Shown here: in pieces, positions 26,157 through 58,215 of the stretch | How positions within the stretch are numbered: position 1 is the stretch's first letter | Layout of the letters: each line of letters starts with the position of its first letter | Program-made: the position numbers and the translations under genes | DNA from: Octopus vulgaris | Lineage: Eukaryota | Assembly (NCBI GenBank): GCA_951406725.2 | Contig: OX597829.1 | Span: 51,274,001-51,338,000, forward strand | Direction: 5' to 3' | Length of the DNA: 64,000 nt | The notes under the pieces: generated by a model | Database searches by the model: none | What the model saw: only the letters and a program-made list of their open reading frames with translations | Told to the model about the DNA's origin: nothing

Positions 26157-26870
26157 TCACAAAGGTAAAGGTGACACATTAGATACGAATAATTACAGAG
26201 TTATCAAGTTGTTGGATCAGGTAATGAAAGTCATGGAGAGGGTCATAGCCCAACTAATTAGGGAGAGAGTCAGTTTAGACGAGATGCAGTTTGGGTTTGT
26301 GCCGGAAAACCACTGATGCTATATTTCTGGTAAGACAGCTGCAGGAGAAATACATTGCCAAAGATAAGCCCCTGTACCTAGCTTTTGTTGACATGGAGAA
26401 AGCCTTTGACAGGGTGCCCTGATCCATTATCTGGTGGTTAGTGAGAACTGTACAAGCCATGTACAGGGATACTGTCAGTAAGGTGAGGGTTGGAAACAAG
26501 TATAGTGAAAAAGTATCAGTCCTCAGCCCACTCTTATTCATTTTAGTCCTCCAGGCAATAACAGAGGAACTCAAGACAAGTTGCATATGGATGAGGACAA
26601 CACTGTGAATAAGTATCACACCTTAGCAGTAGAGGGAACCTGTGGAAGAGGTAGACCCAGGACGACCTGTGATGACTTGGTGAAGTACAACATTTGAACG
26701 TTAGGCCTCACGGACATGATGACAAGCAACTGAGAACTTTGGATATATGCTGTGCTTGAAGTCCTGACAAGCCTAGTGAGACTGTAACTATGGCCTATGC
26801 CAGTGTAGCATAACTGGCCCATTTAAGAGTATCCTTCAACCATTGAGCAAATAAACTGTGCTTGAGGGCG
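26157..26870 (+). mobile_element. RTE-clade LINE fragment (degenerate RT)
   Basis: KGKGDTLDTNNYRVIKLLDQVMKVMERVI...QFGF and LAFVDMEKAFDRVP RT motifs with frameshifts. Confidence 0.88.
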
Positions 26871-26924
26871 TTGTGATTTGACAGCCTTCCTACTTACTAA
26901 GACTTTGGTTTTGCTAGGTTAACC

Positions 26925-27800
26925 CTAAGGCCCTTCAATTCTAGACCTTGCTTCCACATCATAAACTTCGTCTCCAGTTCTGGCGGTGACTTGACTATAA
27001 GAGCAAGGTTGTCAGCATAGAGGAACTCCCAGGAGCAGCCTGTCTTGAATTCCTCTGTTATTGCCTGGAGGACTATAATGAATAAGAGCAGGCTGAGGAC
27101 TGATCCTTGGTTAACCCCTACTTCTACTCAGAATTCTTCACTGTACTTGTTGCCAACTCTCACCTTACTGACTGTCCCTGTACAGAGCTTAATCAGCTCT
27201 TAGCAGCCACTCGTCTATCCACAGTTTCCACATTGACCACCAAATAAGGGATCAGGGAATCCTGTCAAAGGCTTTCTCCAAGTCAGCAAAAGCCAAGTTC
27301 AAAGGTTTATCTTTGGCTAGGTATTTCTCCTGCAGTTGCCTTACCAGAAATATAGCATCAGTGGTGCTTCTGCCTGGCAAGAAACTGAACTGCACCTCAT
27401 CTAGGCTAATTCTCTCCCTATTTAGTTGGGCTATGACCCTCTCTGTAACTTTCATCACCTGATCCAATAATTTGACACCCCTGTAGTTATTCCTATCTAA
27501 AGCATCACATTTTCCCTTGTAGCAGTTGACTATGGTACTGCTACACCAGTCATTGGGTATGATTCCTTCATGTACTTCCTGATTTACAATGCGGGTAACC
27601 CACACTGCCCAATATTTTAAGCATCCCAGCAGTGATTCCTGATAGGCCAGGTGCTTTCTCTGTCTTCATATCCTTAATTGCTTTATCTACCTAAGTACTG
27701 TCGATTCGGATAGATGGTCCCTTAATTTGGTCAACCTTTGGCAGACTCTCCTCCTCCCATTCATTTTCCACATTCAGCAGTCTTTCATAATGGCTTCTCA
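26925..27800 (-). mobile_element. RTE-clade LINE fragment (degenerate RT), inverted relative to the previous one
   Basis: ORF 27252-27605: IPNDWCSSTIVNCYKGKCDALDRNNYRGVKLL...GRSTTDAIFLVRQLQEK...DLEKAFDR; LYADNL nearby. Confidence 0.9.
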
Positions 27801-28132: not shown

Positions 28133-28171
28133 TGTTATCTTTGCTAAATATGGATGCATTTTATTTTTCAG

Positions 28172-28378
28172 GTGAAGTCGAAGTCTGTGAAACAATGCAT
28201 TCAGTTCTATTATTTGTGGAAGAAAGTTTGTCCGGATGAATATAAAAGACTCCGAACAATTCGTCGTAAAAAGGAAAGTGAAGCTATTTACCGTCTAAGA
28301 AATCAGCAGCGTGAGGAATCCAATACCGAAGTCCCAAATTTTAAGAGCAATCTAAAAGAACCAGTTGAAAGAAAAACT
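28172..28378 (+). CDS. TRERF1: Exon: SANT C-half (VKSKSVKQCIQFYYLWKK...)
   Basis: tttcag acceptor, ACT|gtaagt donor; matches ORF 28154. Confidence 0.93.
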
Positions 28379-28455
28379 GTAAGTTTATGACGTTTAGTTT
28401 TGTTGTCGTTGAGCTTCTTTTTTTCTTTCCCCCAAGTGAGAAATGCATTGAAGAA

Positions 28456-28826
28456 TATTATATAGAGAATACCAAACGAGTTCCCTATGGATACCGTATT
28501 TATTACAAGCCACGAGTTGTAATAAATACGGTATCCATAGGGAATGAGTTTGGTATTTTATTTATTACACACGAATAAACGACCATATTTTATTAACCCA
28601 ATAACTAAATTCTTCACATTTAGTTGTAACTTATGAATGACAAAAGTAGTGCCGTCACCGTGACCTCAAGTCATCACCATAGATTGACCAATCAGAAGCA
28701 GTGCTGTCACCGTGACCTCGGGTCATCACCATGGATTGACCAATCAGAAGCAGCGCTCGCAGTATCTGACATATGTTAGATACCAAAAATATCTCAAAGT
28801 GTTCTCACTCACATGTGTGTAATAAT
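28456..28826 (+). mobile_element. 371-bp non-autonomous element with terminal hairpin and two internal 52-bp repeats (copy 1)
   Basis: Near-identical inverted copy at 57845-58215; TATTA.../...TAATAA ends; no obvious TSD. Confidence 0.75.
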
Positions 28827-30429
28827 TCAGGATGGTAGATGGTTCATACAGTATTTAAGTTACTTTAATTTAGCTTCGTTAACCTCTTGTCTATTTTGAA
28901 ATTGCACCAAGTTAAGTGTAGTTTTTTTTTTTTTTCATGCTTCCCAGTAGTATCAGTTGCTGTTGTTGTTGTTGTTGTTTAATTCTAGGTTAACCTGTCA
29001 GCATTCAAACCGGCCATATCCAGCCAAAATATTCTACCTGTTTTAAGTTCAAAGTGACCAGATCCTGCCTCTCACACCTATCTTATAATGTCATTCTAAA
29101 AATAGTCTCATCATCAAAAGCTCAAAGATACCAAATAATGCATGATTAATTCAAAACGACAGAAATAAATATGCTTTATATTTGAGAGTATAATATGAAT
29201 GTCAAGGGGTTAAGGCAGGAAGCTGACATAATTGTTAGCACAATGGGCAAAATGCTTAGCAACATTCTGTCCATCTTTACATTCTGAGTTCAAATTCCAC
29301 CAAAGCCAGCTTTGCCTTGCATTCTTGTGGGGGTCGATAAAATAAGTACCAGTTGAATACTGGGGGTCGATGTAATTGACTTACCCCTTCCCCTGAAATT
29401 GTACCAAAATTTGAAACCATTATTTAATTCTAGGTTAAAGGTGGCAAGAGCTCAGATTCATTAGAGTGCCAGAGAAAATGCTTTGCAAAATTCTGAGTTC
29501 AAATGCTGCCAAGGTCAACTTTGTCTTTAATTTTTGGTGGGGATTGATAAAGTACCATTCAAATATTAGGGTCCCTCCCCACTTATTTCAAGTCTTGTTC
29601 CTATATTAGAAAGAATTATTTAACCAAACATAAGCCCTGGTTGAGCAGACCTATGATCAAACACATTTTAATCATTAAACACTTTTTTTCTTCCCTACAT
29701 AGTATACATTACCCACCAGATTATCTTAACTTTTTTTAAGATGCTTGGATGTGATTTGAGGGGAATTTAGCCATGAACTATGGAAATAAGATGTGTTTTG
29801 GCATGGTTTCTACAGCTGAGTGCTCTTCCTAATGCCATCCACTTTACAGAGTGTACTGGGTGCTTTTTACGTGGCACAAACAATGGTGAAGGTGTGGCTA
29901 TGTGGTAAGAAGCTTGCTTCCCAATCACATGGCACCTTGGGCAAGTATCTTCTACAATAGCCTTGGGGTGACCAAAGCCTTGTGAGTGGATTTGGTAGAC
30001 GGAAACTGAAAGAAGCCCGTTGTATATATATATTTTCATATATGTATTTATGTGTGTGTCTGTGTTTGTCCCACCCCCCATCACCACTTGACAACCAGTG
30101 CTGGTGTGTTTACATCCCCAAAACCTAGCGGTTCAGCGAAAGAGGCCGATAAAATAAGTACTAGGCTTCGAAATAAAAAGTTCTAGGGTCAATTGGTTGA
30201 ACTAAAATGCCTCAAGGTGGTGCCCCAGCATGGCCGCAGTCAACTGATTGAAACGATTAAAAGGTAAAGCGGTAAAAGGCAATGGACTTGCAAGACAAGA
30301 CCCCTTAACTAAATGGGGCACAACATTGAATGAGCTGAAAGTATAATAGGGGGACAAGAGCAAATTGAATGAGCTGAAAGTATAATAGGGGACAAGAGCA
30401 GAAGGTGATTATGAAAGAGATAGAACAGG

Positions 30430-57844: not shown

Positions 57845-58215
57845 ATTATTACACACATGTGAGTGAGAACACTTTGAGATATTTTTGGTATCTAACATAT
57901 GTCAGATACTGCGAGCGCTGCTTCTGATTGGTCAATCCATGGTGATGACCCGAGGTCACGGTGACAGCGCTGCTTCTGATTGGTCAATCCATGGAGATGA
58001 CTTGAGGTCACGGTGACGGCACTACTTTTGTCATTCATAAGTTACAACTAAACGTGAAGAATTTAGTTATTGGGTTAATAAAATATGGTCGTTTATTCGT
58101 GTGTAATAAATAAAATACCAAACTCATTCCCTATGGATACCGTATTTATTACAAGCCACGAGTTGTAATAAATATGGTATCCATAGGGAATGAGTTTGGT
58201 ATTTTCTATCTAATA
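57845..58215 (-). mobile_element. 371-bp hairpin-ended element (copy 2)
   Basis: Reverse complement of 28456-28826, same length. Confidence 0.75.

Follow-up and report, generated by a model that had tools for sequence, protein, structure and literature searches.

The closest described relatives of the element examined here are the CryptonA transposons of animals, which, in the account of Kojima and Jurka (2011; PMC3212892), have no gene other than that of a DUF3504 tyrosine recombinase, leave no regular target-site duplication (TSD) and are far outnumbered by their own short derivatives. These properties recur in the family represented by two copies in the window (the whole 64,000-nt stretch of Octopus vulgaris DNA that was analysed). 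In the passages of PMC3212892 drawn on here, animal Cryptons are reported without terminal repeats and a hairpin is not mentioned. Unlike the elements described there, the octopus family ends in a hairpin of 145 nt and has an 11-bp subterminal repeat that is asymmetric, a palindromic target with a 6-bp centre, one-sided inheritance of the spacer and tips that occur in flip and flop forms. Eulor5, Eulor6 and the salmon families Crypton-N1_SSa as well as CryptonA-N2_SSa reportedly bear a long hairpin at one end. They can be likened to the octopus family by description, being also non-autonomous CryptonA elements with conserved termini, and the relevant text of the paper that describes them makes no mention of a hairpin or palindrome (PMC5753468).

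With regard to mechanism, experimental demonstration of how Cryptons move is lacking, and a double-stranded circle is the assumed intermediate (PMC13565253). For integron attC sites, one-strand exchange of a folded strand followed by replicative resolution has been shown, as set out in the cited parts of PMC3458562 and PMC5027507, and if our reading of the octopus family holds, attC x attI recombination would share with it a tyrosine recombinase, a folded strand with unpaired marks, a single exchange and resolution by replication. The octopus family differs from integrons in being a eukaryotic transposon with degenerate, dispersed targets, a site that would be built from both element ends, no cassette array and a recombinase of Cre-like predicted fold. 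To our knowledge, folded-single-strand transposition has so far been demonstrated only in bacteria.

Helitron2/Helentron elements, as outlined in PMC3627910, likewise have asymmetric terminal inverted repeats, and beyond the inner one lies a hairpin; the octopus family differs in its enzyme, which is not RepHel, in the much greater length of its hairpin and in its target. Quasi-palindrome template switching, as summarised in PMC8604942, also homogenises arms, inverts loops and favours perfect arms, but in the octopus family most copies of a young family are affected, and the changes depend on length, not on age. Within the literature searched, including the relevant parts of PMC13465315 and PMC8969392, hairpin ends, flip/flop tips and folded-strand transposition are undescribed for Cryptons; Repbase or Dfam entries may describe the ends. 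By providing exact ends, a target consensus, full-length open recombinase frames and strand predictions, the octopus family makes the Crypton mechanism directly testable. Its recombinase belongs to the lineage ancestral to ZMYM, QRICH1 and KCTD1 and, were the folded-strand route true, would be the first eukaryotic tyrosine recombinase acting like an integron integrase.

Window copies and their full-length partners

The two window copies are near-identical and lie in opposite orientations (Table 1), and the reversal of their 8-nt loops, on which the original prediction was built, is confirmed in sequence and orientation: the loop at 58155-58162 reads GCCACGAG on the + strand, which relative to the element body is CTCGTGGC. 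The copies are real, but the 371-bp bounds first assigned to them take in 6+1 bp of target, the true length being 364 bp. Similarly, the inverted arms are present but not perfect, with a CGAG/TGAG mismatch in copy 1 and conversions in copy 2, and the TTATTAC/GTAATAA motifs were located in the subterminal repeat and the far end. The hairpin-bearing stretch has a folding z-score of -9.0, with 0 of 100 shuffles as good. In the 2.8 Gb of genome searched, the TTTATTACAA-N8-TTGTAATAAA motif occurs at 32 sites, and a 19-nt motif from the hairpin base has exact matches at 303, against 1 for the control in either case.

Table 1. Features of the two element copies and of their insertion sites in the window
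Feature	Position	Strand	Description
Copy 1	28462..28825	+	Non-autonomous CryptonA derivative, 364 bp; hairpin tip deleted, right arm retained
Copy 2	57846..58209	-	Same derivative, 364 bp; outer-arm base and site 1 converted to complement of inner arm
Left target half-site	28458..28461	+	Host DNA; TTAT here, ATAH is the family consensus
First 6 nt of element (AKAGAG)	28462..28467	+	Putative element-side spacer; left end in 185/186 copies
Outer hairpin arm	28468..28508	+	Mismatch site 1 is CGAG at 28477-28480
8-nt loop GCCACGAG	28509..28516	+	Right-arm (site 2) remnant after 54-nt tip deleted between TTACAA repeats
Inner hairpin arm	28517..28557	+	TGAG at 28545-28548
4-nt linker	28558-28561	+	Between hairpin and subterminal repeat
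Subterminal inverted repeat TTATTACACAC	28562..28572	+	Complement of far end
First 68 nt after hairpin of full-length element, 3' of its gene	28552..28619	+	Internal deletion of ~2 kb at about 28619
Two copies of 52-bp unit	28651..28754	+	Derived from region upstream of recombinase gene
Far end GTGTGTAATAA	28815..28825	+	Last bases like target half-site
Target 6-bp centre and right half-site	28826..28835	+	Centre is 28826-28831; host DNA
8-nt loop CTCGTGGC of copy 2	58155..58162	-	Left arm retained after site-2 conversion, or inverted copy-1-type loop

Both copies are, with near certainty, gene-less deletion derivatives of a 2.4-kb CryptonA transposon, in keeping with the non-autonomous, Crypton-like nature that had been predicted for them. 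A genome search with DUF3504 gave 18 matches, and seven of the top eight sit in elements of 2341-2427 bp that share both the hairpin end and the far end; these are the longer, recombinase-encoding relatives that the original prediction proposed to seek. The eighth apparently represents an exon of a host gene split into several, and a short copy lies close to it. The recombinase frame, 518-521 aa long, is encoded opposite to the CGAG strand and has the hairpin on its 3' side; it matches DUF3504 (PF12012, E=1.7e-26), Phage_integrase (PF00589) and QRICH1, and is the only long frame in both full-length loci whose frames were examined (2 of 7). The catalytic residues of the R-(K)-H-R-(H)-Y set, R265, K298, H393, R396, H419 and Y428, are retained by 53-57 of the 58 proteins aligned, and the family protein is 95% identical to one attributed to Octopus sinensis. 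The predicted fold is Cre-like (pLDDT 81), with QRICH1 and then Cre as the best fold matches and an integron integrase at rank 31, below Cre. Judged by sequence matches of the DUF3504 and QRICH1/KIAA1958 types, the family probably belongs to CryptonA.

The 133 copies with intact tips fall into 39 deletion classes. In the derivative found in the window, the first ~68 nt after the hairpin are fused to the last ~155 nt, with a 52-bp duplication whose unit is single in the full-length copy L155 and present in many copies in L031, L036 and L084. Within L031, L036, L083 and L084 this unit has become a minisatellite, with more than 35 copies in L084. The window copies have in common an 8-nt loop and a haplotype carried by 19 of 96 copies; a tie between them by local hopping is unproven, most other close pairs being different derivatives.

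At least eight more distant DUF3504 matches (L161, L163, L165-L170) are without the ends of the octopus family, several of them within open frames of 397-599 aa. An ungapped inverted-repeat search of the stretches taken showed no similar hairpins beside these eight loci, whose ends may have decayed or fall beyond the stretches searched; L251 has two short inverted pairs.

Ends, target and spacer polarity

Empty sites in repeats set the left end of the element at A(T/G)AGAG. Eleven non-self empty-site comparisons comprise seven exact cases, two within 1 bp, one with a 4-bp duplication and one poor, and duplication of flanking k-mers is close to that in shuffled sequence, apart from a slight surplus at 4, 6, 7 and 8 bp. 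Neither comparison reveals a regular TSD, as had been noted for the window copies, and the family lacks the combination of terminal inverted repeats and fixed-length TSD by which DDE-type MITEs are recognised. Across 169 sites, the target consists of ATAH, six free bases and then a weaker mirror image (ATAH-N6-DTAT), and the agreement between its left profile and the mirrored right one peaks with a 6-bp centre (r=0.88, against 0.52 for the runner-up). Immediately past the cut, the initial bases show a preference for those of the element itself (A 64%, T 47%). With 99% invariance, the far end terminates in ATAA, like the left half-site; in a check for fixed terminal repeats of the CryptonF/S type (4-6 bp), the right ATAA proved invariant and the left ATAH host-derived and degenerate. 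The second base of the element, T in 127 cases and G in 40, varies together with target position -3 (G: 13/40 vs 8/127, p=7e-5) and weakly with position +2 (p=0.04); a choice of target guided by base pairing, or slippage of dinucleotides, could underlie this.

In 185 of 186 copies the element's 6 nt lie on the left and the 6 bp of the target on the right, and the single exception is not reciprocal; no reciprocal spacer products occur in the 186 copies, whichever side the overlap is placed on. A staggered two-strand exchange with unlike spacers should, we infer, yield about half reciprocal copies, and the one-sided spacers fit a single strand exchange. Furthermore, in a natural head-to-tail tandem, one among about 300 dispersed copies, the far end and the left end meet in an exact junction. 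One strand allows the inner subterminal repeat to pair with the far end beside the hairpin base, and the two ends would thereby be stacked as a single site whose short centre is unpaired. A search for permuted insertions originating from the opposite strand yielded none, the junction motif occurring twice, in one tandem and in one converted arm.

In organism C, the element body has no cover at 85% likeness: the contig leaves the window at 28461 and resumes at 28833, and the orthologous empty site holds 15 letters vs 7 expected. Organisms B, D and E have the CryptonA family, and their flank contigs run into the element. The gap in organism C may reflect recent invasion or horizontal transfer, contigs showing presence, not absence. 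Copies cluster towards chromosome ends (C3, C4), with 10 of the 22 matches listed on C3 lying beyond 168 Mb. In addition, about 20 copies (L012, L013, L015, L017-L020 and others) represent one insertion amplified passively with a host repeat, in which the flanking (TA)n tract varies in length.

Tip deletion, tip inversion and their timing

The intact terminal hairpin is ~145 nt long and contains three CGAG-opposite-CGAG mismatches and a C-GAAA-G tip, with TGAG on the inner arm at site 1. Its two strands differ by 2 kcal/mol only in folding energy (-66.9 vs -64.7; nearest-neighbour); tandem G.A pairs give extra stability. Among the first 100 matches listed by a loop-blind search, 69 have intact tips and 31 have deleted or unreadable ones. 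TTACAA and TTGTAA are each present twice in the hairpin, 54 nt apart, and deletion between the TTACAA pair retains the right-arm 8 nt, that between the TTGTAA pair the left-arm 8 nt. The 30 copies with 8-nt loops, which span many body lengths and include one full-length copy, form four classes (17, 8, 3 and 2) that match left- or right-arm retention combined with site conversion. Since the CTCG share among right-arm loops (8/25) equals the site conversion rate in intact copies (45/134), the 8-nt loop behaves as a recurrent scar. It is mostly a deletion scar, and its interpretation as a tyrosine-recombinase spacer, central to the original prediction, is rejected in favour of a remnant of 54-nt tip deletion between 6-bp direct repeats. 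Copy 2 may be a true inversion of the 8-nt loop, in which case one strand switch would explain its loop, site 1 and the outer-arm base together; site 1 is converted in both copies of its loop class.

When loop orientation was tabulated genome-wide, inversion proved frequent, recurrent and independent of subfamily, although the 8-nt loops themselves, with their four forms, do not show the 50:50 flip that had been anticipated. In intact hairpins a 14-nt tip inverts as one unit, with flip:flop counts of 67:48 genome-wide (exact pattern) and 47:18 in the tolerant loop-blind sample, the two samples combining into 142 pooled copies (88:54); in the family at large, about a third of copies have the reversed tip. 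Flop tips are spread over 13 of the 39 deletion classes, and each of the four common body haplotypes includes some (7/23, 7/15, 14/26 and 5/14), so that they are neither rare nor confined to a single clade; they show no clustering on the body tree (23 changes vs 20.7 in shuffles), which is star-like, with 0 starred branches and little power. Tip flip/flop is therefore real and subfamily-independent; three copies of one 441-nt derivative display three different states.

Each stem site is converted on its own: site 1, altered in 46 of the 136 copies, changes mostly towards the inner arm (39 vs 7), and site 2 converts both ways (24 vs 39). Flop tips are found in 42 of 78 copies with a perfected stem site vs 5 of 51 with ancestral stems. 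Not one of the 129 fully scorable copies has all mismatch sites inverted together, which argues against the rolling-hairpin replication originally invoked for the reversed loops. Before counting, L046, L053 and L147 (rearranged or without an outer arm) were left out, as was L143 in some tables, and four site states in the early sample were assigned by eye. In the rearranged L147, an inverted body piece is fused into the hairpin tip, as a tip strand switch would give.

Conversion or flip of any kind affects 86 of 121 copies with a body below 700 nt vs 2 of 16 longer ones (p=9e-6), in a test that left out 8 copies without a far end (4 converted), whose element matches stop early. The same bias appears when each deletion class has one vote (18/28 short vs 2/11 long changed, p=0.014) and in the loop-blind sample (36/57 vs 1/7, p=0.036), and a comparison of divergence gave no age effect (p=0.34). 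Mirrored private arm mutations number 7 of 174, where a simple model of steady post-insertion conversion leads one to expect 10-15% and chance about 1. L254 has an inner arm that is wholly a copy of the outer one, private change included, and one arm-perfecting base distinguishes the duplicates L081/L082; together with the seven mirrored mutations, these cases indicate some conversion after insertion. The short-element bias, the lack of a rise with divergence and the scarcity of mirrored mutations imply that most scrambling is early, with a real later background, and point to tip inversion and arm conversion that mostly predate private mutations and belong to the time of transposition. As an alternative account of the length effect, long elements might be mobile only with an unaltered hairpin. 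A control with passively amplified copies, those nested in another repeat, shows 0 conversions in 20; it is weak, because these copies are of lower age (divergence 0.6%, elsewhere about 1.3%) and a single deleted tip is common to most of them, and a search for more such copies gave only two with an exact full hairpin.

A folded-strand reading and its alternatives

We consider the chances evenly poised that the element moves as one folded DNA strand, in the manner of an integron cassette, and that its end hairpin is scrambled by host repair or replication around transposition. This reading starts from what was observed: which family it is, where its ends lie, how its hairpin is built, the symmetry of the target, the one-sided spacers, and how often and in which copies flips occur. 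In it, the CGAG/GAAA strand would fold, with the hairpin base and the stem of subterminal repeat and far end stacking into one recombination site; the recombinase would join the far end to the left end and then swap one strand with an ATAH-N6-DTAT target cut at the left edge of its 6-bp centre, and the junction would be resolved by replication, as in integrons. In the folded hairpin, arm mismatches would be converted and the tip inverted through strand switching or cruciform resolution, the tip equilibrating near 50:50 once a mismatch is lost; separately, slippage between the 6-bp direct repeats would remove the tip and leave the 8-nt loops of the window copies. One-strand exchange of a folded strand would thus explain the polarity, the fold-back ends and the mismatches confined to one strand. 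A pure single-strand route makes no inverted tip, so both strands would have to be present at some stage, and tip inversion is for this reason best attributed to strand switching by the host, or to the processing of a cruciform, at about the time of transposition. By analogy with integrons, the recombinase would bind and cut the folded strand selectively. The original idea that mobilisation itself inverts the loop is favoured. The wider proposition, that animal CryptonA transposons are eukaryotic folded-single-strand recombination systems, counterparts of integron cassettes in which G.A mismatches mark the site and hairpin changes record each round, is one we hold tentatively, at slightly less than even likelihood.

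The likelihoods attached to this reading and to its rivals address partly different steps and do not sum to one. The published Crypton model (in the cited parts of PMC3212892 and PMC13565253), in which two strand exchanges join a double-stranded circle to the target by way of a brief ATAA/ATAH repeat common to both, the hairpin being an accessory binding platform, agrees with the likeness of the far end to a target half-site, the element-like lean of the first bases after the cut and the Cre-like predicted fold. It should nevertheless have left reciprocal products, of which the 186 copies contain 0, it leaves the fold-back layout of the ends and the three same-strand mismatches unexplained, and active CryptonF copies rose despite clean excisions, according to the relevant part of a preprint (bioRxiv 10.1101/2022.05.23.493040); we regard it as doubtful, if still a serious contender. 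Rolling-hairpin replication of the parvovirus type, or an HUH element of the Helitron2/Helentron type, could draw on the existence of both flip and flop tips and on the Helitron2-like layout of asymmetric subterminal repeats and hairpin (PMC3627910, in its relevant part), and is very improbable given that mismatch sites are never all inverted together, that the sole long frame in the two full-length loci with frames examined is a tyrosine recombinase and that the target is a recombinase-type palindrome, not a T run.

Two further explanations accept the same transposon and concern the hairpin changes. Ordinary quasi-palindrome template switching in host replication, accruing after insertion and independently of transposition, homogenises arms and inverts spacers mostly in already perfect arms (PMC8604942, in the part cited), which matches the excess of flop tips among perfected stems; it does occur in the octopus family, as the mirrored private mutations, L254 and L081/L082 attest, and one intermolecular switch accounts for all three changes in copy 2. 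As the main source, however, it predicts independence of length and a rise with age, whereas no age effect was found and conversion, at similar divergence, affects none of the 7 full-length copies and 2 of the 12 long derivatives; mirrored mutations are fewer than it predicts, and in 19 of 49 flop copies the conversions are not contiguous from the tip, so that a single switch is insufficient. It is accordingly unlikely, with some weight of its own. Still less probable, in our view, is inversion by the recombinase itself, which would flip 54 nt on an extruded cruciform through a TTACAA-N8-TTGTAA site in each arm, the two spacers differing by 2 nt; it transfers the original prediction to the intact hairpin. 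Such inversion would suit the link with mobility and a 50:50 ratio where the two spacers are alike, TTACA is similar to the subterminal motif, and the one-sided conversion of site 2 that it predicts for flop copies is seen in 32 of 50, vs 31 of 84 flip copies. Yet 13 of the 50 flop copies are unchanged on both sides at site 2 and 5 are changed on both, site 1 is converted although it has no such recombinase site, the integration target has a 6-bp and not an 8-bp centre, and an early by-eye tally of 14/17 in its favour fell to these 32/50 genome-wide.

Around the insertion site of copy 1, an 80-codon ORF at 28148-28390 (+) lies in single-copy DNA and ends ~70 bp before the element; it is possibly a last exon, which would place copy 1 in a 3' UTR. 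Broken frames at 26275-27665 (-) resemble, as judged by eye, a non-LTR reverse transcriptase.
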